Part shown: positions 946-50,026 of the stretch, piece after piece | How positions within the stretch are numbered: the stretch's first letter is position 1 | How the letters are laid out: every line of letters begins with the position of its first letter | Source: a virus | Taxonomy: Duplodnaviria > Heunggongvirae > Uroviricota > Caudoviricetes | IMG/VR virus record: IMGVR_UViG_2737471852_000002 | Location: 1 to 51,736 of that record | Strand: one strand, 5' to 3' | Length of the DNA stretch: 51,736 nucleotides | The notes under the pieces: model-generated | Database searches by the model: none | What the model saw: only the letters and a program-made list of their open reading frames with translations | What the model was told of the DNA's origin: nothing | Position numbers and translations under genes: made by a program

Positions 946-3123
946 TCAATCATCTTCTGGGAATGATGAACTTAATAGCGTAGCTTCTGCATATTGGTCG
1001 TAGATATTACTGCTAAAGGTCATAAAGCTGGTTTCATCTGGTTTAATGGCAACTTCACCACCAAGTGAAACTTTCACAGGCTCCTGAATACGTTTGCTCA
1101 AAGCACTAATTTCATCTCTCAGACTCTGAATATCTGCGCTGGTTAATGCTGAATCTTGCTTAATGTTGTTTAACTCTGGATGATTGAATCTTGCAATATT
1201 CATTGTGGCATTGTTAAACAATTCACCCATTGAACTAAAAATTTTATTCCATCCTTCGTTAATCATATTCGGTTTATTAGGGTCACCAGAATACACAGGA
1301 TTAAAGTCACTACCCACACCTACCCCAGATGGATGCATATTAGCGTTTTTGACTACTTCCTGATTCATAAAATCCAGTGCTTTCTTCAATGCATATAAAC
1401 CAAGAGTGACGCCTCTGATTTGTGGAATCATTGAAGCTAATGCTAACGCTGTTTCATAACCGTCATCAGCATAACCGATTGCAAGAGCACTACCTACACC
1501 ACCAGCTACACCTTTCAGTTTTCCACCACCTTTACCAGTAGCTACCTGACCAGCCACCTGATTAGCTCTTGTACCTAACGTTGTGATTGCTCTTGTCAGG
1601 TTCATAACCCCTGTAGTAGCACTGAATAGTGTCTTTGCAGATAACGCTATAGCAAGACCTTTGACAAAATTGATAAAACCATCACCGACTTCATCAAGTA
1701 GTTTTCGTTTAGTGTCATCAAGGCTGTAATAGAGCTGCTTAACCTGTAAAATCCAGCCTTCAATGTGATTGTTAAAGATACGGATGTCATCTACACCAGC
1801 TTTAAGCATGTCGATAAGTCCACCGATAGCATCACCAGCGATAGAAGAACTCATCCCCATTTCACTAAGCAGGTTACTCAGGCTGGATAAGAAGCCGTTT
1901 AGCTCATCCTGTGAACCTGAGAAGATTTTCACCATCGTGTCATCCCAGTTGTTTGCTAACTTACCTAAAGCTGTCTGGGTGCTCTTAGCGACTTCAGCCC
2001 AGCCACCCGCTTTATCAATCATCAAGCCCATCTGTTTAGCGACTTTAGGAAGAGTATCAGCGGAAAGAATCTTCCCGTCTTTCATCGCTTTATCAAGCTC
2101 TGTAGCAGTCATACCCAATGCTTCAGCGAACAGCTTAAATGCACCAGCCATACGGTCACCTAGCTGACCACGTAATTCCTCAGCCTGAATCTTGCCCTTA
2201 GAAGCCATCTGCTCAAAAGCTTTCAAAATGCCGTTTAGCTCGTCGTTAGAAAGCCCCATTAAGCGACTCATAGCCGTTGCATTACCAAATAGCTCCTGTG
2301 TCTGTTCCTGTGACATAGAACCCTGAGCACCTGCTGCAAACTTAGCGTAGCTTGATAGTCCTTCAGAGATATTAAGACCTGTCTTGTCTGCTAGATTTCG
2401 AATAAATACCTCAGCCTCAGAGGCTTTATCACCAAGTACAAACTTAGCGGCTCTCTGTGCGGAATCTCGTTTAAGACCTGCATTCATAATGGCCTTGTAA
2501 GCGTTAAGAGCACCCATCACAGAGTAAAATGCACCAGATAACTTAATTGCATTGCTTGCAAGATTATTAAATGCGTCGCTTGTATTACTAATGCTGGTGG
2601 ATGTATGACCTCTGGCTTTAGCAATTGCTTCTCGGACTGAAGAATTTAACTGAGCCAACTTCTCATTGAATTTTGAATTATCCATCTGACCAGCTTTAGC
2701 AGATAGCCCGTAAAACTGAGATTTGATGTATTTCTGCAAAATAGGGTCAAAGCCTTTTAGCTTGCTCATATTCGCTGAGTAAGCTGCTGTGATTGCTCTG
2801 TTTCCGCTAATTCGTGGCTGTCTTGGTTGTTTTGGAGGATTAACAGTGTCATTAAATCTGGTGGCAAACTGAAATGCTCTTGTGTTTCTTGCTCTCTGTT
2901 CAATCTTGTCAAAGGTCTTATTAAACTTCCTTTCAAGTTGCCCTAAAGAACTTGTCAGATTACTGTCAAGTTGCTTGGTATCGACCTTAAACGCTCTATT
3001 CAAATTACGTTCAATTCTTTGTGCTGACTGCAAAGCTGCCTTTTCAACTCTTTGCAAGCCCTTAATAACGCTCTCGCTGAAGCCTAGCTCAACGATAAAA
3101 CTATCAACTTTAAATTGTGCCAT
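946..3123 (-). CDS. tail tape measure-like protein (AT-rich module)
   Basis: 725-aa ORF, long helical and coiled-coil-like N-terminal half, glycine-rich hydrophobic segments (GKGGGKLKGVAGGVGSALAIGY), followed by a tail-protein-like gene; GAGGTG RBS before ATG at 3123. Confidence 0.55.
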   Translation of the reverse strand: MAQFKVDSFIVELGFSESVIKGLQRVEKAALQSAQRIERNLNRAFKVDTKQLDSNLTSSLGQLERKFNKTFDKIEQRARNTRAFQFATRFNDTVNPPKQPRQPRISGNRAITAAYSANMSKLKGFDPILQKYIKSQFYGLSAKAGQMDNSKFNEKLAQLNSSVREAIAKARGHTSTSISNTSDAFNNLASNAIKLSGAFYSVMGALNAYKAIMNAGLKRDSAQRAAKFVLGDKASEAEVFIRNLADKTGLNISEGLSSYAKFAAGAQGSMSQEQTQELFGNATAMSRLMGLSNDELNGILKAFEQMASKGKIQAEELRGQLGDRMAGAFKLFAEALGMTATELDKAMKDGKILSADTLPKVAKQMGLMIDKAGGWAEVAKSTQTALGKLANNWDDTMVKIFSGSQDELNGFLSSLSNLLSEMGMSSSIAGDAIGGLIDMLKAGVDDIRIFNNHIEGWILQVKQLYYSLDDTKRKLLDEVGDGFINFVKGLAIALSAKTLFSATTGVMNLTRAITTLGTRANQVAGQVATGKGGGKLKGVAGGVGSALAIGYADDGYETALALASMIPQIRGVTLGLYALKKALDFMNQEVVKNANMHPSGVGVGSDFNPVYSGDPNKPNMINEGWNKIFSSMGELFNNATMNIARFNHPELNNIKQDSALTSADIQSLRDEISALSKRIQEPVKVSLGGEVAIKPDETSFMTFSSNIYDQYAEATLLSSSFPEDD

Positions 3124-3137
3124 TGTTCATATTTCAC

Positions 3138-3177
3138 CTCTGTTAAGCGTGAGCTACGTAAAAAATAATTTTTGGTG
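3138..3177. repeat. 40-bp perfect direct repeat, copy 2
   Basis: identical to 865-904; lies 15 bp upstream of the tape-measure-like gene start. Confidence 0.85.
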
Positions 3178-3569: not shown

Positions 3570-4274
3570 TCAAACAGCCTTGCTAAATTCTCGTGGAACA
3601 CTCAGAAAATCATTGAAGCTGATAATCTGTGCCAACTCTTGACGGTACTCCTTAGCCAGCGCTTGATGGTCACTAATCAGCTTAGCCAGTCTTGATTTCA
3701 GTAAATTAATCTCATTTTCTCTTGCTTTCATCAGTTTCTCTTTGGCAATTTCTTCAAGCTCAGCTTGTGATTTATCAGCAACAATTAGAGACAGTCGATG
3801 TGGCGCTCTAATGGCTCTTTCTGTACGAACAACTCTTTGACCTTCTGGTAAATCTGCAATCACTTTACCAATCTCTACAGGGTCATACCCCCAACCGTCA
3901 CGGTCTAGTCGAGAGAAATAAGCATAAGGATTGGTTTGAAGCTCCATCAAAATAGCCATTTCGTCAATTTCGTCTTCAAGCTTGGACTGAATTTTCTCGT
4001 AAACACTTCTCATTGCTTCTTGAGAGTCTTTAATAGCTTGGAAATATCGGCGTTGTAGCTTCAACTTCAAATCAAGTTCACACCGTTCGTTCATAGAAAA
4101 ATCAATTTCAACTCTTGGAATCTCGAGTGGTTCTGGTGGAATATATGGACCTTTATTTACTTCGTGTGATTCCCGCCAAGCTCTATCAAAAGATTCACGC
4201 AAACTTAATTCGTGAATATCAAGTGCACTTGGTCGGCTTTCAATAATCATTTCATTTTCATCACGGATAGCCAT
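3570..4274 (-). CDS. hypothetical protein
   Basis: 234-aa ORF in the AT-rich module; charged and helical; no family recognised. Confidence 0.35.
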   Translation of the reverse strand: MAIRDENEMIIESRPSALDIHELSLRESFDRAWRESHEVNKGPYIPPEPLEIPRVEIDFSMNERCELDLKLKLQRRYFQAIKDSQEAMRSVYEKIQSKLEDEIDEMAILMELQTNPYAYFSRLDRDGWGYDPVEIGKVIADLPEGQRVVRTERAIRAPHRLSLIVADKSQAELEEIAKEKLMKARENEINLLKSRLAKLISDHQALAKEYRQELAQIISFNDFLSVPREFSKAV

Positions 4275-41475: not shown

Positions 41476-42330
41476 TCAGTCCCTCGCCCATGATGGGATT
41501 TCAGTCTGCCCGTAGTCCTTCCCTGCGAAATTTTCGGCAACTCGCGTCTGTTGGCGTGGTTGAGGCTTGGAACCCTTTGGCTCAAACAAGCCTTGCCAGC
41601 CATTGGCGATGCTCTGATTAATAATTTCGTCAGGGGTGTAGCCGTTCAGCCTGCAGCGGTCGAGCAACTTGATAGCTTGCGTCACGGTCTGCTGAGACTT
41701 GATCGGCTTTTTCAGGTCACGACGGTATGCCACCCATGACGACCAGATTTCTGCAGAAAGCCAGTCAGGCAACTTAACAGCTGACGCATCGAACGAAACC
41801 GCCCGGGGGGATTTAGGGGGGTTATTAATATTGTCTTTATTGTCTTTTGTATGTTTGTCTTTTGTGTTTACCTGATTCGGGTAATAGGCGTTACCTGATT
41901 CGGGTAAACTTTTCTTACCTGATTCGGGTAAATTTACCTCTTTCGGGTAAACATTATTTTTCTTACCTGATTCGGGTAATGTTTCCCATTCGCTGACCAC
42001 ATTATTAATACCGATATTCCGCCCGCTCTGAATAAAAATCCCACGCTTTACCAGAACACTTTTTGCAGCTGAGCACTTATGCGGGAGAATGCCGGTCAGC
42101 TCCGAGATCTGCTCGTTACTGACCCAGTCAGATTTCTTATTGAAGCCGTATGTTTTGCGCATGACGGCCATGAACACCAAAAGCTGATGCTGCGACAAAC
42201 CTGCATGCATGACAGCCTCAAGGAGCTCATTGGCGATACGCGTATAACCATCGTCGAGATCTGCCACGCGCAGCTCCTGTAGTGCCACGACAGGCACAGG
42301 GAAATTGATTACTTCGGCAGTATTTGCCAT
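41476..42330 (-). CDS. O: replication initiator O-like protein
   Basis: N-terminus ...VADLDDGYTRIANELLEA...RKTYGFNK... resembles lambda O; iterons embedded in the gene. Confidence 0.8.
   Translation of the reverse strand: MANTAEVINFPVPVVALQELRVADLDDGYTRIANELLEAVMHAGLSQHQLLVFMAVMRKTYGFNKKSDWVSNEQISELTGILPHKCSAAKSVLVKRGIFIQSGRNIGINNVVSEWETLPESGKKNNVYPKEVNLPESGKKSLPESGNAYYPNQVNTKDKHTKDNKDNINNPPKSPRAVSFDASAVKLPDWLSAEIWSSWVAYRRDLKKPIKSQQTVTQAIKLLDRCRLNGYTPDEIINQSIANGWQGLFEPKGSKPQPRQQTRVAENFAGKDYGQTEIPSWARD
41868..41979. repeat. replication origin iterons (5 copies of a 17-bp repeat) inside the O-like gene
   Basis: four exact copies of TTACCTGATTCGGGTAA plus one degenerate copy, flanked at 41821-41867 by an AT-rich tract, as in ori-lambda. 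Confidence 0.8.
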
Positions 42331-42415
42331 AATTACTCCTGTGAATTTGTTCAGTTAATTCGCGTAGAAAGCCGTTAGTGTTCCCGCACTGCGGCTTTCG
42401 CCCTTCTGTTTCCAC

Positions 42416-42637
42416 TCATGCTTCAAAATCACCTTTCTCTCCCGGCCTGTTAGAAATCAGGATGGCCAGCAGTAGCGACATGTTCGGCAGCAGACTTTCC
42501 CGCCAGCGACTCACCGTCGACTTATTCACTCCGGCCACTTTGGCGATATTCGTGGTTCCCAGTTCAGCTATCTGGCTGTGTAACCAGCTTTCTATCCTGC
42601 GAGCCTCCACTTTGTTGCGTGTCGTTGAACTCTCCAT
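42416..42637 (-). CDS. cII: CII-like transcriptional activator
   Basis: 73 aa; ...ARRIESWLHSQIAELGTTNIAKVAGVNKSTVSRWRESLLPNMSLLLAIL... parallels lambda CII. Confidence 0.65.
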   Translation of the reverse strand: MESSTTRNKVEARRIESWLHSQIAELGTTNIAKVAGVNKSTVSRWRESLLPNMSLLLAILISNRPGEKGDFEA

Positions 42638-42716
42638 TTGTGATACTTCCTCTGGTGGTGTTTGGAATGGCTGAATTACTCAGTCAGAACCCGCTGACTG
42701 CTCAATTCAGCTTTGT

Positions 42717-42908
42717 TTAATCAGGATTTCTGTTATGTGGGAAAGGCTTGATCTCCTCAGCCTTAATTTTTCCATCAGGCAGGGTGTTAACGAAAATCTT
42801 CCGCCCTACCCGGATAGCTTTACTAATTGCGGTCTGGTGAACGCCGATGGCATCAGCAGCTCTTGCCTGTCCAACTTCGTCAACGTATTCAGCTAAAGAA
42901 ATTTTCAT
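42717..42908 (-). CDS. cro: Cro repressor (lambda-Cro-like)
   Basis: 63 aa from ATG at 42908 (AGGAG RBS); GVHQTAISKAIRVGRKIFVNTLPDGKIKAEEIKPFPHN closely parallels lambda Cro. Confidence 0.8.
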   Translation of the reverse strand: MKISLAEYVDEVGQARAADAIGVHQTAISKAIRVGRKIFVNTLPDGKIKAEEIKPFPHNRNPD

Positions 42909-42939
42909 GTGGTTAGCTCCTATCAACTCACGAGTAAAC

Positions 42940-42979
42940 AATACCACAAGTATTAAACATTGCAATACCGCTAGTATTT
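42940..42979. promoter_or_regulatory. OR-like operators between cro and cI
   Basis: 15-bp palindromes AATACcacaaGTATT and AATACcgctaGTATT about 24 bp apart in the cro-cI intergenic region. Confidence 0.55.
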
Positions 42980-43012
42980 TTAAAATAAGAACATTGGTAT
43001 TACTATTTGAAA

Positions 43013-43723
43013 ATGGAAAAGAAAAAGACACTGACATCGGCTCAGATCGCTGACGCAGAAAGGCTGAAAGCCCTCTATGAAGCCAAGAAAAAAGAGCTTG
43101 GGATAACACAGCAATCAATAGCTGACATGCTAGACATATCTCAGGGGGGCGTTGGGCATTACTTGAATGGCAGGAATGCCCTTAATGCTGCCGTGGCTGC
43201 TGTTTTTGCCAGAGCCCTCCAGGTGGATGTCTCTGATTTTAGCCCCAGCCTTGCGAAAGAAATATCTGCAATGAGTGCTTCCGCTACATCGAATGCCAAG
43301 TATGCAGGCCAGTACACCCCAGGCATTAAATACCCTGTATTAAGCAAGATTCAGGCTGGGCATTGGTCGGAAGCGTGCGAGCCGTATGCACTTAAAGATA
43401 TCGATCTATGGCTAGAATCAGACGCTCACATCCAGGGGGATGCGTTCTGGTTGTTGGTCGAGGGGGAATCCATGACTGCCCCGGTCGGGCTCAGCATACC
43501 AGAGGGTACCTACGTTTTGTTTGATACCGGCCGAGAGCCAGTAAATGGCAGCCTTGTGATCGCAAAGCTATCCGAATCAAACGAAGCGACATTCAAAAAG
43601 CTGATTATTGATGGGGGCCAGAAGTACCTGAAGGGCTTAAACCCTCAATGGCCATTGGTTCCCATCAACGGAAACTGTCGAATCATTGGTGTGGCAGTAG
43701 AAACTAAGTTAAGGCTTGTGTGA
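43013..43723 (+). CDS. cI: CI-type repressor with S24 (LexA-like) autocleavage domain
   Basis: N-terminal HTH (QQSIADMLDISQGGVGHYLNG), C-terminal ...LVEGESMTAP...GSLVIAKL...ATFKKL...; divergent from cro. Confidence 0.85.
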   Translation: MEKKKTLTSAQIADAERLKALYEAKKKELGITQQSIADMLDISQGGVGHYLNGRNALNAAVAAVFARALQVDVSDFSPSLAKEISAMSASATSNAKYAGQYTPGIKYPVLSKIQAGHWSEACEPYALKDIDLWLESDAHIQGDAFWLLVEGESMTAPVGLSIPEGTYVLFDTGREPVNGSLVIAKLSESNEATFKKLIIDGGQKYLKGLNPQWPLVPINGNCRIIGVAVETKLRLV

Positions 43724-43836
43724 TCGGCAGCATGCCGCAGACGTACAGGAAGCATGGGTAGCCACTTACGTTCGTTTTATCCTTGATAAAATGAATTACA
43801 ACGTATTAAAAAATATTGAATTTTGGAGATAAACAA

Positions 43837-44103
43837 TTGACTGAACGAAACCCGTCACTTACCCCTCAGCACATGACTGCGACCTCAACCATTTTGACTC
43901 CTGGAAAGGATGAGGTTGTAATTACGTTTTACTCTCATGAATTTACTTATCTTTTACCAGAAAACGTTCAACCGCAAACTGGCATTCAGGTTAAAGTAGA
44001 TCTGAGGCCTGAGATTGGTATTTCACTTACAACAGACCAAGCAATTGCGCTTACGAAGGCTCTTAAAACCAATTTGGAAGCGAATGGACTTTGGAAACAG
44101 TAA
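43837..44103 (+). CDS. hypothetical protein, first gene of the cassette downstream of cI (rexA/rexB position)
   Basis: about 88 aa; start ambiguous (TTG at 43816 or 43837, GGAG RBS); no family recognised. Confidence 0.35.
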   Translation: MTERNPSLTPQHMTATSTILTPGKDEVVITFYSHEFTYLLPENVQPQTGIQVKVDLRPEIGISLTTDQAIALTKALKTNLEANGLWKQ

Positions 44104-44159
44104 ATCCTGGTTCGGATAATACAACTGTTACGCCTTCAAGTGGTAAGGCGGGATTTGTT

Positions 44160-44639
44160 ATGCCGGGAATTATGGTTAGCGCAGCATTAGCCGCGTCGAT
44201 GGCGCCTTCCTATGGAAGCGTACCTCAGTACCAAATTGCTTTTGAAGATGCTAGTCTTACCAGTAGACCATATGACAAATTTACCAGTCTGCCGCTGGAT
44301 AAAGAGACCGAATCACATGGAAGCAGTGTAAACTTGGAGGCCGATGTGAGCTCAGCAAGCAGAGAGGAGATCGACGCAAAACTGGCCTTGACAAAGGCTG
44401 AGATTGAACTATCTCAGGCTCATAACTTTTCGTCAATTGAAAAGCTATTGATTGAAGTTAAAGGAGAAATAGCGTCTTTACGGGGAGAGCTGTCTGGTAA
44501 TAAAGATGCTGTCTCTGGGCAAATAGACGGGCTAAAAACATCTATTTCAACGATGCAATGGATGGTGGGGACTGTTCTTGCCATGATGGGTATTGCTGTC
44601 GCTATTTTAGCCATTCCCGGAATCAATAAACTCCTGTGA
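44160..44639 (+). CDS. bitopic membrane protein with central coiled coil, second gene of the cassette downstream of cI
   Basis: about 159 aa from ATG at 44160 (ORF opens at 44091); N-terminal hydrophobic segment, coiled coil, C-terminal TM (MQWMVGTVLAMMGIAVAILAIPGI); overlaps the upstream gene. Confidence 0.4.
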   Translation: MPGIMVSAALAASMAPSYGSVPQYQIAFEDASLTSRPYDKFTSLPLDKETESHGSSVNLEADVSSASREEIDAKLALTKAEIELSQAHNFSSIEKLLIEVKGEIASLRGELSGNKDAVSGQIDGLKTSISTMQWMVGTVLAMMGIAVAILAIPGINKLL

Positions 44640-44647
44640 TCACCCAA

Positions 44648-44670
44648 CCCGGCCACCGCGCCGGGTTTTT
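44648..44670 (+). terminator. intrinsic terminator ending the cI / downstream-cassette transcription unit
   Basis: cccggc-caccgc-gccggg followed by TTTTT. Confidence 0.7.
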
Positions 44671-44742
44671 ACTGCCCTACTCTTCCCGCAACATCAGCAC
44701 ATCCAGTGCCAGCTCCACAGCCAGATCGACCTGGTCTTCCTG

Positions 44743-44880
44743 TCACAACACCTGAATCATCTCTATCAGCGCCTCTCTTGAGGGCTCGTGCTTCTCAACC
44801 AGCAGCTGCATAACCGCTATCCCGATAACCTGCGCTATCTGCGGGTGCATTTCTGCGAAAAACTCATCCTCATTTGACAT
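44743..44880 (-). CDS. possible 45-aa small protein between the terminator and OL
   Basis: AAAGGGG RBS 8 nt before ATG at 44880; MSNEDEFFAEMHPQIAQVIGIAVMQLLVEKHEPSREALIEMIQVL; below the ORF-track cutoff. Confidence 0.3.
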   Translation of the reverse strand: MSNEDEFFAEMHPQIAQVIGIAVMQLLVEKHEPSREALIEMIQVL

Positions 44881-44951
44881 GCCAACACCCCTTTATGATG
44901 TTTTTTTGAGCATAACAGCACTTTTTACAAAAATAAATTAACTTTAAAATC

Positions 44952-45020
44952 ATACCTTTAGTATTTTTATTAAATATCATAATACTGGCGGTATTGATAT
45001 AAAATAATACCCGGAGTATT
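44952..45020. promoter_or_regulatory. OL-like operators / pL region
   Basis: AATACtggcgGTATT, AATACccggaGTATT and ATACctttaGTAT share the AATAC-N5-GTATT design of the sites between cro and cI. Confidence 0.55.
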
Positions 45021-45132
45021 ATCACCTCATCCAAACAACGCACACAAATGCGCAGATGGCCCAAAACTCCGCTGGCCGGCGATAAGGCGATAAGGGTGAA
45101 ACGTCCTCAGGATGTAAAGGATGGATTGATTT

Positions 45133-45252
45133 ATGGCAGACAACTACTCGTTAGCGACTTTGGTTTCTACAGCAGCTATAGCGGTTGCAATAACCAATCT
45201 GGTATGGACTGTGATGATGCAGATCACCATCCACAAACTCAAAGACAGATAA
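45133..45252 (+). CDS. possible 39-aa hydrophobic peptide, first ORF of the early-left operon
   Basis: AAGGATGG RBS; MADNYSLATLVSTAAIAVAITNLVWTVMMQITIHKLKDR has a single TM helix; the alternative overlapping 70-aa ORF 45048-45260 lacks an RBS. Confidence 0.3.
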   Translation: MADNYSLATLVSTAAIAVAITNLVWTVMMQITIHKLKDR

Positions 45253-45474
45253 CCACTTGAGAGTGGCAATACTAAAGCTGATTTGACTCGGTTTTGGTAT
45301 TCAAAACAATACTTAAACGCGCAGTAGGTTTGAAACGTTCCGCCAGCTTGGCGACAAGGGCAAAGCACAGAAGTGAGCTTCGCGGTGGTGAATTGCAGAG
45401 TTAAAGCGCTCAACCGTGAAGATCAGCGCCGCAGCAACACCAGCGAAGTTCACTCAGAAAAACTGGAGTACATC

Positions 45475-45681
45475 ATGGTTCATCAGCACTACGGTACACA
45501 GACAGTAAACCGCGGCGCAGTTCAGCCGGGGATGCTTGTAAAACACAAAGACTCAACCTGGACCGCATCTGCTAACGCACGCGGTCGCCTGTATCTTCAC
45601 CGTGGCATCGAACGTACCTACACCAAAGATTTGCTGGTTGAGGTTTATCTAAACGGTTTAGGACATGGCCTTAGCCATTAA
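45475..45681 (+). CDS. hypothetical early protein (Kil-like position)
   Basis: 68 aa from ATG at 45475 with GGAG RBS; upstream of recE. Confidence 0.4.
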   Translation: MVHQHYGTQTVNRGAVQPGMLVKHKDSTWTASANARGRLYLHRGIERTYTKDLLVEVYLNGLGHGLSH

Positions 45682-45691
45682 CGGAGTGAGT

Positions 45692-45853
45692 TATGCAGGA
45701 GAAAAAATGCGCGTACTGCCGCAAGCCGATCAAGCAAGGGAAGGAAGTTAAAAACGAACTGCTCTTTATCCACGGCACGCAGTTGAAACGCGAGCAACGT
45801 GATTACTGTTCAGTACGTTGCGCTTCGTTCGACCAGATGGCCCACGAAGCATA
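45692..45853 (+). CDS. small zinc-ribbon protein (YdaE-like position)
   Basis: 53 aa, GGAG RBS; CAYC...CSVRC cysteine pairs. Confidence 0.45.
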
Positions 45854-45992
45854 ACGAAAACCCCGCGCAAGGCGGGATTCACGTCCGGTGCCACCGACCA
45901 AAGTTACACCGGAATTTATACCAAACCAAAAAACATCCAATGGGCGCTATCTCTGGCACGGGGATTCTAACACTCAAAAAAGAGGATCTCAC

Positions 45993-48902
45993 ATGGAATT
46001 TTTCCATCTGATAAAAGCCAGTCAGAAGTCTGGCAAGAAAGATGCAGTGATTTGGTTCACTGCGAAAAGTGTAGCGCGCGCCAATCTCCAACTCGATGTG
46101 GCACTGGAAGAAGCCGGAATTGAAGAAACTGGCCGCGGTAAAGATTATGCCAAACCAATCCGCACCGATTTCCCGGTATATGACGACCTGCCGGAAGAAG
46201 GCGCAGTGGATTACACCTGGTGCGAACGCTACGAACTGCAGAACGATGACCGCACCTGGCTGCCAAAAGTCACAGCTGAAAACTCTGACGAGAAAACGGC
46301 TCAGACCGTTGATAGTCACATAACTACTGAGTCAACGCTGCCAGAAACCGCTGGCATCACGCTGGACGAACACGACGACGACTCAACCCTCTACCCGGTA
46401 GTGCAGATGCCGTTTCGTAAGCAACTGCTTTCCCAGTTCACCGCCGACGAACTGCGCCACCACGTAACCCGCGAAGAGTACGAAGCTATCGGCGCGCTGG
46501 AGATGGACACTGATAACAGTTACGTCCAGAACTTGCTGTTAGCTGCTGAGAACTGCCCGGAAGTGAAGGGTTACGACACCAAAGACCTGTGGCGCTACAC
46601 CGATGCCATTCGCAAAGTGTTCAGCCAGGACAAGCGTCACGAACTCGCGCTGGTACTCCGTTTCACCAGAATGTGGGCGGCGACTGATTACATTGACCGT
46701 GGCATCCTGGCGCGTGAATGGGCTGCCGGTAATCACATCAGTAGTGTTCAGCGTACTGATTCCGGAACCAATGCCAACGGCGGTTACGTCACTGACCGTG
46801 GACCTGATACATACCATACCCTTGACACTCTCGATTTAGAGATTGCATGTGCCCTTCTGCCTATGGACTTCAACCACTTCGAGATCCCGGGCAGCATTCT
46901 TCGTCGCGCTAAAGAAATCGTGACCAAAAAAGAAGAACCGTGGAAATCATGGAGCAGCATTCTGCGCAATCAACCCGGCGTTCTTGGCGTTAACCGCACA
47001 GCTATTTTTAACCTGATACGTATCGCGCCGGAAAATATTCATCTAACTCCTGTCGCTCACCTGGAGTTTGTTAACCGGACCATGACTGCTGCGTTTAATG
47101 CTGCTGTTGAGTTATTGCCATTGCATGAAGCTGAGCCCGCAACACAGGAAATTCCCCAACCTGAAAGTAAGGAGTCTCCACGCAAACCCTTCTGCACTCA
47201 CGAAGAGAACCTGCAACGCGTACGTGAAGAAGAAGCACGCCGCCGCGCAGAGGAAGCGACAGCACAACCACATAAAGCCGAACAAGAACTGGTTAAAAAT
47301 GTCGGCAACGGAATATTCGATGTTACGGCTTTACTGCAGAACTCAGCAACTCATGGCACGAAACAGGCTACGGAAACCACCAGCAATGTGCAGGTTCAAG
47401 AAACTGTCAGTGATGAAAAAAATGTTGGTAATGAAATGCAGTCAGGCGAAAGCAGTCTGGAAACTGGTGAAGAGTCACATCCCGGCCAGCAGGCCGATGT
47501 AAACCAAAATACGGAATCTGTCGCTCAAAATAGCGATTCTGTAAACCAGACTGAACCAGTTTTGGCACACGTCGAGCCAGAGGCGCAATCTGACGAACAA
47601 GCTGTTTTTTACCCCGATTACTTCGAGCCTGGGCGCTATGAAGGTCTGCCGAACGAGGTTTACCACGCTGCCAACGGAATCAGTTCCACCCAGGTAAAAG
47701 ATGCGCGCGTTTCGCTGATGTACTTCAATGCGCGCCACGTTGAGAAAACCATCGTCAAAGAGCGCTCCTCAGTGCTGGACATGGGAAACCTGGTACATGC
47801 GCTGGCGTTGCAGCCAGAACAGCTCGATGAAGAATTTAGCGTTGAACCCGTAATTCCGGAAGGTGCATTTACCACCACGGCAACGATCCGCGCGTTTATT
47901 GATGAGTACAACGCCAGCCTGCCAGCGCAACTGAGCGCAGACGATATCAAAGCTTTGCTGGATGAATACAACGCCACCCTGCCAGCGCTGGTGCCGCTGG
48001 GCGCTAGCCTGGATGAAACGGCGCAGAACTATATGGCGCTGCCAGCTGAATTCCAACGTATCGATGCAGATCAGAAGAAGACAGCAACAGCAATGAAGGC
48101 GTGCATCAAAGAGTACAACGCCACCCTGCCAGCGCAGATTAAAACCAGCGGCAGCCGCGACGCACTACTCGAACAACTTGCGATTATCAATCCTGACCTG
48201 GTCGCGCAGGAAGCTCAGAAGCTGCAACCGCTGAAAGTCTCTGGCACGAAGGCCGATCTGATTCAGGCCGTGAAGGCAGTCAAACCAGATGCAGTGTTCG
48301 CCGACGAGCTGCTCGATGCTTGGCGCAACAACCCGGAAGGGAAAGTGCTGGTTACCCACCAGCAACTTGCCACCGCGCAGGCAATTCAGTCAGCACTGCT
48401 CTCGCACCCGACCGCAGGCATGCTGCTAACCCACCCGAGCCGCGCCGTTGAGGTGAGCTACTTTGGCTTTGACGAGGAGACGGGACTGGAAGTTCGTGTG
48501 CGCCCTGACCTTGAGATCGACCTAGACGGCGTGCGTATCGGTGCTGACCTGAAAACCATCAGCATGTGGAATGTTAAGCAGGAAAGCCTGCGCGCCAGGC
48601 TACACCGGGAAATTATTGAACGTGATTATCACCTGAGCGCGGCTATGTACTGCGAAACCGCAGCGCTGGATCAGTTCTTCTGGATTTTCGTCAACAAAGA
48701 CGAGAACTACCACTGGATCGCCATCATCGAGGCATCCGCTGAACTACTGGAGCTGGGTATGCTCGAGTACCGCAAAGCGATGCGCAATATCGCAACCGGA
48801 TTCGACACAGGTGAATGGCCAGCGCCAATCACTGCTGACTACACCGACGAACTGAACGACTTCGACCTGCGCCGCCTTGAAGCGCTGCGTACTCAGGCAT
48901 AA
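45993..48902 (+). CDS. recE: RecE-like exonuclease VIII
   Basis: N-terminal and central regions parallel Rac RecE as I recall it (VIWFTAKSV..., FTRMWAATDYIDRGILAREWAAGNHISSVQRTDSGTNANGG); C-terminal nuclease domain; AAGAGGA RBS before ATG at 45993. Confidence 0.8.
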   Translation: MEFFHLIKASQKSGKKDAVIWFTAKSVARANLQLDVALEEAGIEETGRGKDYAKPIRTDFPVYDDLPEEGAVDYTWCERYELQNDDRTWLPKVTAENSDEKTAQTVDSHITTESTLPETAGITLDEHDDDSTLYPVVQMPFRKQLLSQFTADELRHHVTREEYEAIGALEMDTDNSYVQNLLLAAENCPEVKGYDTKDLWRYTDAIRKVFSQDKRHELALVLRFTRMWAATDYIDRGILAREWAAGNHISSVQRTDSGTNANGGYVTDRGPDTYHTLDTLDLEIACALLPMDFNHFEIPGSILRRAKEIVTKKEEPWKSWSSILRNQPGVLGVNRTAIFNLIRIAPENIHLTPVAHLEFVNRTMTAAFNAAVELLPLHEAEPATQEIPQPESKESPRKPFCTHEENLQRVREEEARRRAEEATAQPHKAEQELVKNVGNGIFDVTALLQNSATHGTKQATETTSNVQVQETVSDEKNVGNEMQSGESSLETGEESHPGQQADVNQNTESVAQNSDSVNQTEPVLAHVEPEAQSDEQAVFYPDYFEPGRYEGLPNEVYHAANGISSTQVKDARVSLMYFNARHVEKTIVKERSSVLDMGNLVHALALQPEQLDEEFSVEPVIPEGAFTTTATIRAFIDEYNASLPAQLSADDIKALLDEYNATLPALVPLGASLDETAQNYMALPAEFQRIDADQKKTATAMKACIKEYNATLPAQIKTSGSRDALLEQLAIINPDLVAQEAQKLQPLKVSGTKADLIQAVKAVKPDAVFADELLDAWRNNPEGKVLVTHQQLATAQAIQSALLSHPTAGMLLTHPSRAVEVSYFGFDEETGLEVRVRPDLEIDLDGVRIGADLKTISMWNVKQESLRARLHREIIERDYHLSAAMYCETAALDQFFWIFVNKDENYHWIAIIEASAELLELGMLEYRKAMRNIATGFDTGEWPAPITADYTDELNDFDLRRLEALRTQA
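47904..48135 (+). repeat. three near-identical 25-bp intragenic repeats in recE
   Basis: gaNtacaacgccaNcctgccagcgc at about 47904, 47964 and 48111, each encoding EYNA(S/T)LPA. Confidence 0.7.
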
Positions 48903-48907
48903 GGGGA

Positions 48908-50026
48908 ATGATGATGGAAAACACGAATATCGTAACCGCTGAACAGCAGACTCCAAACACGATCTCAGCCAGCAATGCCATTTTCAACGTGCAGGCTTTA
49001 ACCCAGCTTCAGTCTGTCGCCGGGTTGATGGCACAGGCAGCCGTAACGGTGCCTGAGCACCTCCGCGGCAATCCGGCAGACTGCATGGCCATCATCATGC
49101 AGGCGATGCAGTGGGGTATGAACCCTTACGCCGTGGCGCAAAAGACGCACCTGGTTAACGGTGTCCTGGGATACGAAGCGCAACTGGTTAATGCGGTGAT
49201 CTCCAGCTCAAACGCCATCGTTGGCCGCTTTCACTATGAGTACGAGGGCGACTGGTCGAAATGTGCCAGCAGCCGCGAGATAACCGTTAAAAAGCCTGCG
49301 AAAGGTGGCGGGACGTACGACAAGAAAGAAATGGTACGCGGTTGGGAAAGTGCTGATGAACAAGGACTGTCGGTACGGGTAGGTGCCGTTATTCGCGGTG
49401 AAAGTGATATCACCTGGGGAGAGCCTGTTTTCCTCTCCAGCGTAATCACACGTAATTCTCCACTTTGGGTATCAAACCCGAAACAGCAGATCGCTTATCT
49501 GGCACTCAAATACTGGGCGCGCCTGTATTGCCCTGCAGTTGTTCTTGGTGTGTACACCCCTGATGAGATTGAACAGCGCACAGAAAAAGAGATCAACCCA
49601 ACGCCGCAACGCGTTAGCCTGGCTGATATCTCAGGTGACACCGTCACAACCACGCAAAGCGCACAGGAATCGTCGGTAAATGTCGACTCTCTTGCCGATG
49701 ATTTCCGCGAACGCATCGAATCTGCTCAGGACGTGGATAGCGCCAAATCGCTGCGTGCCGACATTGAAACGGCGAAAGCTACGCTGGGATCCGCACTATT
49801 CACCGAGCTGAAAAACAAAGCCGTAAAGCGTTATTACCTAGTGGATGCACGCAACAAGGTTGAGGAGGCTATTAAATCCCTGCCCCAGCCCGACGAGCCG
49901 CATGCAGCCGAACGGTTCGCTGAAGCCGAGCGCATGCTTGCATCTTCAAAGCGTCACTTAGGCGATGAACTGCACGATCAATTCAGCATCACCCTGGCGG
50001 ATATGAAACCGGAATACGTGGCCTGA
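48908..50026 (+). CDS. single-strand annealing protein of the RecT/Red-beta superfamily
   Basis: 372 aa immediately downstream of recE; ...NPADCMAIIMQAMQWGMNPYAVAQKTHLVNGVLGYEAQL... parallels the Red-beta/RecT core. Confidence 0.65.
   Translation: MMMENTNIVTAEQQTPNTISASNAIFNVQALTQLQSVAGLMAQAAVTVPEHLRGNPADCMAIIMQAMQWGMNPYAVAQKTHLVNGVLGYEAQLVNAVISSSNAIVGRFHYEYEGDWSKCASSREITVKKPAKGGGTYDKKEMVRGWESADEQGLSVRVGAVIRGESDITWGEPVFLSSVITRNSPLWVSNPKQQIAYLALKYWARLYCPAVVLGVYTPDEIEQRTEKEINPTPQRVSLADISGDTVTTTQSAQESSVNVDSLADDFRERIESAQDVDSAKSLRADIETAKATLGSALFTELKNKAVKRYYLVDARNKVEEAIKSLPQPDEPHAAERFAEAERMLASSKRHLGDELHDQFSITLADMKPEYVA

Follow-up and report, generated by a model that had tools for sequence, protein, structure and literature searches.

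A truncated accessory gene and a 39-amino-acid membrane-peptide gene flanking the OL/PL region of a lambdoid prophage

What do the two small open reading frames (ORFs) on either side of the leftward operators (OL) and early-left promoter (PL) of a lambdoid prophage encode? This question arises from a 51,736-nucleotide stretch of DNA (IMG/VR record IMGVR_UViG_2737471852_000002; here called the window), which is a lambdoid prophage sequence that ends at the integrase gene. An initial annotation of the window had placed three operator-like palindromes between a 45-amino-acid (aa) acidic ORF on the minus strand and a 39-aa hydrophobic ORF on the plus strand. Our analysis indicates that the locus is probably a lambdoid OL/PL region with a truncated accessory gene (a "moron") of predicted YmgB/AriR fold to its left and, to its right, a genuine gene for a 39-aa membrane peptide that forms an optional cistron of the PL operon. 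Both small genes are familiar kinds of phage accessory gene.

The leftward operators and PL

A motif scan of the whole window found exact ATAC-N5-GTAT palindromes at only five places in 51.7 kb, all other matches being mismatched. Two are the rightward operators (OR) between cro and cI, and the remaining three lie between the two small ORFs (Table 1). PL, which is the top sigma-70 match of the region (10 of 12 consensus positions), has its -35 hexamer overlapping OL2 and its -10 hexamer overlapping OL1. The locus thus has the lambda-type arrangement of three operators with the OR consensus and an overlapping, outward-directed promoter, and the initial designation of the OR-like palindromes as OL/PL operators holds for all three exact cores.

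Evidence that the 39-codon frame is a gene

Gene callers have predicted the identical 39-aa product on 24 contigs or more, with the same arrangement each time. The lone diverged homologue (P0002, on locus L006) has 41 aa, is 82% identical, and is associated with a different repressor and operator set. Across 35 gap-free codons, the window and L006 differ at 17 nucleotides, 12 of them at third positions (binomial P 0.002); 12 codons have changed only synonymously, and 3 of the 35 carry replacements, all of them conservative (T/A, V/I, and T/I). Both sequences keep the stop codon in place, one as TAA and the other as TAG. Read in the other five frames, nearly every changed codon would be non-synonymous, with stops gained in two frames, and so few replacements were reached in 0 of 100,000 random placements of the substitutions (Monte Carlo P<1e-5). 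The initial annotation had proposed that conservation of the frame be checked in relatives: among 18 loci that carry the leader, with four operator sets between them, the frame is disrupted in none, the only variants being one T33I and one synonymous change, and the diverged homologue keeps it as well. Judged by this pattern of substitution, the 39-aa ORF is a genuine coding gene under purifying selection.

RefSeq leaves the ORF without annotation in both of the E. coli genomes that carry it, and the flanking non-coding blocks are conserved even better than the ORF itself, as might be expected if the segment were untranslated and conserved as RNA or DNA within the PL leader. However, the excess of third-position differences, the restriction of replacements to three conservative ones, and the retention of a stop despite the change between TAA and TAG all argue for translation, and the folding of the entire leader is no more stable than that of shuffled sequences (z -1.3). 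We consider it extremely improbable that the ORF is untranslated.

The predicted product is a small hydrophobic membrane peptide. Kyte-Doolittle hydropathy, averaged over 19 residues, peaks at 1.85 across residues 10 to 28 and predicts one transmembrane helix; the N terminus of the peptide is acidic, and its C terminus is basic (HKLKDR). The peptide should insert as a single helix, with the short acidic N terminus outside and the basic C terminus inside. The initial description of a plus-strand ORF that encodes a single transmembrane helix and heads the early-left operon therefore stands, while its ribosome-binding site proves only moderate, with AAAGGA 11 to 12 nt and GGA 7 nt ahead of the ATG. 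The L006 homologue has a better-placed start (AAGGTG, then 5 nt). In the window, the ATG that aligns with it is in frame with the 39-aa ORF and closes after two codons, and the frame resumes at 45133.

An optional module between PL and the kil leader

A sequence element of about 26 nt, which we call R (AACGTTCCGC-N5-6-GGCGAYAAGG), occurs twice in the window, against zero expected occurrences, and the two copies bracket the small ORF. The same bracketing is seen in L006, where two 30-nt copies (3853-3882 and 4088-4117), 93% alike, are spaced 235 nt apart. The stop codon of the ORF abuts a small hairpin that, by comparison with mEp237, Rac, and locus L141, marks the start of the usual kil leader (AACCAC...). 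Among relatives, PL of mEp237 and of L141 runs straight into the kil leader, with no ORF between PL and kil; in mEp237 and E. coli Res13-Sevr-PER07-33, a leader of some 240 nt comes right after the promoter, starting with AACCACC and holding a single R about 140 nt before kil. Because R brackets the ORF, because the stop of the ORF is fused to the AACCAC hairpin, and because mEp237 and E. coli Res13 are without it, the 39-aa gene reads as an optional insert, a module of about 230 nt that separates PL from the kil leader. Its control by PL should keep it off in the lysogen and have it expressed along with KilR once cI is lost.

The ORF sits in the 5' leader of the kil operon, and this position raises the prospect of a regulatory leader peptide, in which ribosomes at the stop codon would melt the adjacent hairpin and so tune the downstream kil gene. 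The hairpin is identical in L006, and a two-codon mini-ORF precedes the 39-aa ORF, both of which would suit such a role. Against it, amino acids are kept along the whole transmembrane segment while third positions drift, the kil start lies 223 nt further on, and mEp237 and L141 carry the kil leader without the ORF. In addition, neither a promoter/terminator scan nor folding found a terminator between the ORF and kil, and the hairpin is itself not a terminator, since it lacks a U-tract. Conservation extends beyond the frame to the amino acid sequence itself, which makes a pure leader-peptide role very unlikely.

What the 39-aa peptide might do

Homology offers little guidance. When 1.84 billion representative proteins were searched with a profile, the peptide's own cluster and two repetitive giants were the only matches; no match was found in Pfam, NCBIfam, or PADLOC; and neither tblastn against phage records nor scans of GTDB representative genomes and JGI metagenome contigs returned anything. 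A scan of IMG/VR yielded two near-identical copies of the ORF. Of 5426 complete E. coli genomes, only 2 carry the leader DNA (45025-45330), and no phage record contains it. A weak PHROGs match to phrog_32414 (E 0.014) was taken as hydrophobic noise, and Rac YdaG and YdaF were rejected as homologues or analogues, neither being hydrophobic. By these searches, the peptide is an orphan with no detectable relatives.

Its sequence nevertheless invites the prediction, close to that of the initial annotation, that it is a type I toxin or a holin-like killer that depolarizes the membrane. In size and design, it resembles Ldr and TisB, with a short polar N terminus, an Ala/Ile/Thr-rich helix that contains Trp, and a basic tail; moreover, it is cotranscribed with kilR, a known host-killing gene, and is tightly repressed by cI in the lysogen. 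Yet the exhaustive profile search detected no homology to any toxin family, including the type I families Hok, Ldr, TisB, Ibs, Sho, Zor, and DinQ. A scan of 42300-46100 with Rfam detected no antisense RNA, and the antisense strand of the 39-aa region has only a weak terminator-like site (45267-45252, minus strand). The gene lies outside the lysis cassette, and many small membrane proteins are regulators rather than toxins. A toxin is possible but, on this evidence, somewhat unlikely. More broadly, the role that seems most likely would be an early, non-essential one directed at the host membrane, where the peptide might arrest growth or division or exclude further infection.

The minus-strand ORF is a nonsense-truncated 67-aa gene

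The minus-strand ORF is acidic (8 D/E versus 2 K/R; net charge, -6) and has a Shine-Dalgarno sequence, AAGGGG, at 44888-44893, 7 nt before its ATG. These features agree with the initial annotation; its standing as a 45-aa protein does not survive. The in-frame TGA at 44743-44745 replaces the codon for a Trp (Trp46) that is invariant among 28 aligned sequences, and past it the frame runs on for 21 further codons until a TAG (44677-44679) immediately beside the terminator. When the TGA is read as Trp, the 67-residue product matches phrog_3946 end to end (1-67/67; E 3.6e-39) and is 84 to 97% identical to hundreds of 67-aa proteins. This family comprises 513 clusters at 90% identity, mainly of 67 aa and mostly from Klebsiella prophages, all of them annotated as "hypothetical." Intact homologues have TGG at codon 46, as in QBP28515.1 (Klebsiella phage ST11-VIM1phi8.2) and WP_208789921.1 (E. 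coli OW1E2), whereas an allele from E. coli SUISSEKPC3NDM5 that is 99% identical to the window carries the same TGA and is labeled by RefSeq as an internal-stop pseudogene. The window copy therefore lacks both Trp46 and helix 4 of the intact phrog_3946 frame, and the sequence comparison identifies the 45-aa ORF as a nonsense-truncated allele of the 67-aa family and not as a new 45-aa protein.

The intact family has a predicted fold that superposes on 2OXL (E. coli YmgB/AriR) with a deviation of 1.8 A over 58 residues; this helical bundle was the sole strong fold match. Searches for sequence relatives found no Pfam match up to E 10, none in NCBIfam or PADLOC, and no sequence match in the PDB. 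Independent support for the predicted link to YmgB/AriR comes from mEp237 (L002), in which the interval from the cargo terminator to PL holds an unannotated 83-aa ORF (2073-2324, minus strand) that is placed and oriented just as the 67-aa gene is. In a BLASTP search, this ORF hit E. coli AriR (E 5e-5; 33% identity over 55 residues), and its alignment to the 67-aa profile, across the corresponding helices, is weak. YmgB acts through RcsC to activate the Rcs phosphorelay (PMC11709261) and binds SpoT, raising guanosine tetraphosphate (ppGpp) levels (PMC10704370). By analogy, the intact 67-aa protein is probably expressed in the lysogen, where it would bind and modulate a host signaling protein, such as a target of the RcsC or SpoT type.

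The W46-stop allele is real and widespread. The exact 45-aa product of the window is found on 5 contigs, and an R31 variant of the allele (P0125) is found on 357; P0126, P0130, and P0137 share the same stop, and the allele is present in two mosaic contexts, those of the window and of L005. Such recurrence on several backgrounds and in many assemblies, together with a frame that is still open to the ancestral stop, raises the question of whether the TGA allele still works, either as a stable 45-aa variant or through a leaky stop that delivers a low dose of full-length protein. In the leaky-stop version, near-cognate reading of UGA by tRNA-Trp would restore the ancestral residue, and UGA before C was reportedly found by Poole, Brown and Tate in 1995 to be the weakest stop context in E. 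coli. On the other side, truncated alleles of 37, 31, and 46 aa are likewise common, a pattern that resembles ordinary decay, and the parts that are lost, Trp46 and the last helix, are the conserved ones. A C-terminal mutation in YmgB, R74G, abolishes partner binding (PMC10704370), and the TGA carriers are too alike for a test of selection beyond the stop. We think it quite unlikely that the allele functions; rare read-through aside, only the 45-aa stump can be made, and with Trp46 and helix 4 lost it is most likely inactive.

A cassette with its own promoter-like site

Upstream of the truncated gene, a promoter-like site with an extended -10 (Table 1) is followed by CAAAAAAAC and then by the AAGGGG Shine-Dalgarno sequence. 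An alignment of related loci showed that the upstream block GTGCTGnTAnGCTCAAAAAAAC is kept across loci with three operator sets, although the operators themselves differ. The segment that is common to Klebsiella phages starts at the terminator, reaches about 66 nt beyond the ATG on its upstream side, and ends just short of the operators, and the terminator is kept together with the 67-aa gene. Since GTGCTGnTAnGCTCAAAAAAAC is kept while the operators change, the gene appears to carry its own promoter and to share a terminator, which is the usual layout of a phage moron cassette; the promoter activity itself is putative. A PRM-like, cI-controlled promoter (TTTATA-16-TATGAT, 45003-44976) was considered for the minus-strand gene and is possible; conservation alongside the gene, however, is seen for the site at 44909-44937 and not for this one.

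The shared terminator (-14.6 kcal/mol on the plus strand) serves the cI operon on one strand and the convergent small gene on the other. The small ORF does face cI, as had been noted, with two cargo genes and this terminator in between.

Several observations weigh against the picture assembled above. For the 39-aa gene, the coding test draws on one diverged homologue (that of L006), the other copies being at least 99% identical; the ribosome-binding site is suboptimally spaced, and a stop closes the frame of the aligned ancestral ATG. Since the family has no detectable relatives, no function can be transferred to it, and both the gene and the cassette are read from sequence analysis. For the minus-strand gene, the W46-stop allele is found often and on several sequence backgrounds, which is a slightly uneasy fit with a "dead gene." The link of the 67-aa family to YmgB is purely structural and comes from a predicted model: hhalign comparisons give E 0.24 against AriR and E 0.015 against YmgA, with neither constituting a significant sequence match.

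The immunity region and the early-left operon

The features of the region are collected in Table 1. An earlier map had taken the ORF at 42416-42637 for cro; its match to Phage_CII identifies it as cII, and cro instead starts at about 42908. The spacer between cro and cII is filled by a long hairpin, GCTGAATT...AATTCAGC. The two cargo genes 3' of cI overlap each other and gave no PADLOC match and no significant Pfam match. In related prophages, the same spot holds quite different genes (ParA-like, DUF3037, and DUF6932).

Table 1. Features of the immunity region and early-left operon (window coordinates)
Feature	Position	Strand	Description
cII	42416-42637	-	Phage_CII; adjoins replication genes
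cro	~42717-42908	-	63-aa ORF, starts MKISLAEY at ~42908
OR palindromes	42941, 42965		Between cro and cI; exact-core scan
cI, LexA-like	43007-43723	+	Peptidase_S24 and helix-turn-helix
Cargo ORF 1, rexAB position	43816-44103	+	95 aa; phrog_26809
Cargo ORF 2, rexAB position	44091-44639	+	182 aa; coiled coil and C-terminal transmembrane anchor; phrog_5820
Terminator	44648-44670	both	8-bp GC stem, then TTTTT on +; poorer tail UUGGGUGA on -
Ancestral 67-codon frame	44677-44880	-	Small acidic protein of predicted YmgB/AriR fold (phrog_3946)
45-aa ORF, stop included	44743-44880	-	N-terminal remnant, helices 1-3 of the four-helix model
Promoter-like site of the cassette	44909-44937	-	-35 TTTATT (44937-44932), 17-nt spacer, extended -10 TGtTATGCT (44917-44909)
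OL, three cI operators	44951-45020		Exact cores at 44952, 44982, and 45007
OL3	44951-44965		cATAC-N5-GTATT
OL2	44981-44995		AATAC-N5-GTATT
OL1	45006-45020
PL promoter	44994-45022	+	TTGATA (44994)-17-TATTAT (45022); predicted start near 45029
R copy 1	45063-45087	+	AAAACTCCGCTGGCCGGCGATAAGG
ATG GAT TGA	45121-45129	+	Aligned with the L006 homologue start; in frame with the 39-aa ORF, closed after two codons
39-aa single-pass membrane protein gene	45133-45252	+	MADNYSLATLVSTAAIAVAITNLVWTVMMQITIHKLKDR; first PL cistron; 113 nt past the last operator
Small hairpin	45253-45266	+	CCACU-UGAG-AGUGG; abuts the 39-aa stop codon; identical in L006; z -2.2
R copy 2	45333-45359	+	AAACGTTCCGCCAGCTTGGCGACAAGG; common to mEp237 and L141
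kilR-type cell-division inhibitor gene	45475-45681	+	68 aa; phrog_294, E 2.8e-35; PF27398 KilR; annotated Kil in mEp237
ydaE-family gene	45693-45854	+	Zinc-binding small protein
recE	45888-48902		Followed by recT
recT	48908-50026		Follows recE

On the other side of the operators, the genes after PL are the 39-aa ORF, kilR, and ydaE, none of them an N gene, and no boxA of a nutL site was noticed in 45023-45475. The gene set kilR-ydaE-recE-recT places the early-left operon in the Rac/mEp237 type and not in the lambda N type. A DUF4060 protein, an excisionase-like ORF, and the integrase are encoded 3' of recT.

Within the spacer between ydaE and recE, the Rfam family isrB, an Hfq-binding small RNA, gave a match on the minus strand (45856-45951) that is below threshold, at 30.4 bits versus a gathering score of 35 (E 0.009). 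The site is preceded by an extended -10 promoter-like site (45992-45964, minus strand) and has a GC hairpin and a U run at its end, features that make it a candidate small RNA inside the PL operon.

R and the first genes of other early-left operons

R is by no means confined to the window and L006. It is present in at least 119 IMG/VR viral contigs (L021-L139 among our loci), which have many different immunity regions, and its usual place is 30 to 49 nt past a promoter-like -10, with the Shine-Dalgarno sequence of the first early-left gene only a few bases further on. We surveyed the first cistron after R in 113 non-redundant R-bearing loci among the matches listed. It encodes a 36- to 42-aa "MIDFARKP" protein at 37 of these loci, a small transmembrane peptide from one of two further unrelated families (MSKQGIR... 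and MIR[KE]EDKP...) at 11, KilR at 7, and something else at 50, while at 8 loci there is no start within 60 nt of R. The remark in the initial annotation that short hydrophobic peptides head prophage early operons is borne out by the 11 of 113 loci, among the matches listed, that open with an unrelated small transmembrane peptide.

The commonest first gene (L032, L045, and about 35 others) encodes MIDFARKP(A/G)RQQAV...LCYLLAQKG, which is not hydrophobic, and has its ATG about 40 nt downstream of the start of R. The 36-aa family MSKQGIRSLI... occurs on more than 1000 contigs. In Klebsiella phage ST11-VIM1phi8.2 (L001), two consecutive ORFs with a single transmembrane segment each follow PL and overlap at an ATGA (2968-3075 and 3062-3172); the first is unannotated and encodes 35 aa (MIRKEDKPAWRNFWLKVVPFLVAVIAVSYPCWGGK), and the second is annotated and encodes the 36-aa MSKQGIRSLI... 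peptide.

R matches no Rfam family; the scan of 42300-46100 was empty except for the subthreshold isrB-like match. A boxB-like hairpin or a put-like RNA was also considered and rejected, as R folds worse than shuffled sequences and its variants are without convincing compensatory changes. R may be a regulatory site or merely a conserved junction at which modules recombine. Tentatively, one could go further and regard the small single-pass membrane peptides that form the first cistron after R, of which there are at least three unrelated families including the 39-aa orphan, as an unrecognized class of early effectors that act on the host membrane or divisome, with R as a new cis-regulatory signal for the first gene of the PL operon; as it stands, this larger proposal is unlikely.

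Implications

Neither small-gene result overturns current understanding, but both have consequences for annotation: the 39-aa ORF, which RefSeq omits, merits a gene entry, while the entry for the 45-aa ORF should describe a truncated allele instead of a novel small protein. As candidates for early host-takeover factors, the 39-aa peptide and its positional analogues would be inexpensive to test. The predicted YmgB/AriR fold gives phrog_3946, a large "hypothetical" family that is common in Klebsiella prophages, its first structural handle, and it suggests that prophages carry mimics of host signaling connectors. Such mimics could shift the capsule, biofilm, or stringent-response state of a lysogen, which bears on Klebsiella phage receptors and persistence.

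Comparison with known systems

The arrangement in the window is the mirror image of the lambda immunity region. Common to both are cI, cargo genes, a terminator, and three operators over PL, with PL directed as cI is; unlike lambda, the window is without an N gene or a recognizable nut site after PL. The closer parallel is the Rac/mEp237 early-left operon, which has the same genes in the same order after PL. From 45316 onward, the kil leader of mEp237 is about 94% identical to that of the window, which differs from mEp237 and L141 in the ORF that it has placed before this leader. In Rac of E. coli K-12 (L017, 1906-2003), the 5' leader of kilR contains an annotated small RNA, KilS, that has its own terminator (PMC8175672), a segment that is absent from the window. 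Rac YdaG and YdaF, unlike the 39-aa peptide, are not membrane proteins.

Membrane damage can result from type I toxins (Ldr, TisB, and Hok) and from YdfD of the Qin prophage, all of them short and hydrophobic; YdfD is a lysis protein encoded in a prophage early operon. The 39-aa peptide differs from them in having no homology to any of them and no antisense RNA partner detected in the region scanned, and its repression would be transcriptional, via cI. In size and topology class, and in being encoded by the first cistron just after R, it is like the MSKQGIR... (32 to 47 aa) and MIR[KE]EDKP... (35 aa) peptides, to which it has no sequence similarity.

Like moron cassettes in general, the small gene on the left of the operators has its own promoter-like site and terminator; unlike these cassettes and the lambda immunity region, it is antiparallel to both flanking operons. 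Its intact 67-aa product resembles YmgB/AriR, the "connector" encoded in the ycgZ-ymgA-ariR-ymgC operon, in being small, helical, and cytoplasmic by prediction, but it is phage-borne beside OL, shorter, far more acidic (net charge, -12), and, in the copy that the window carries, truncated.

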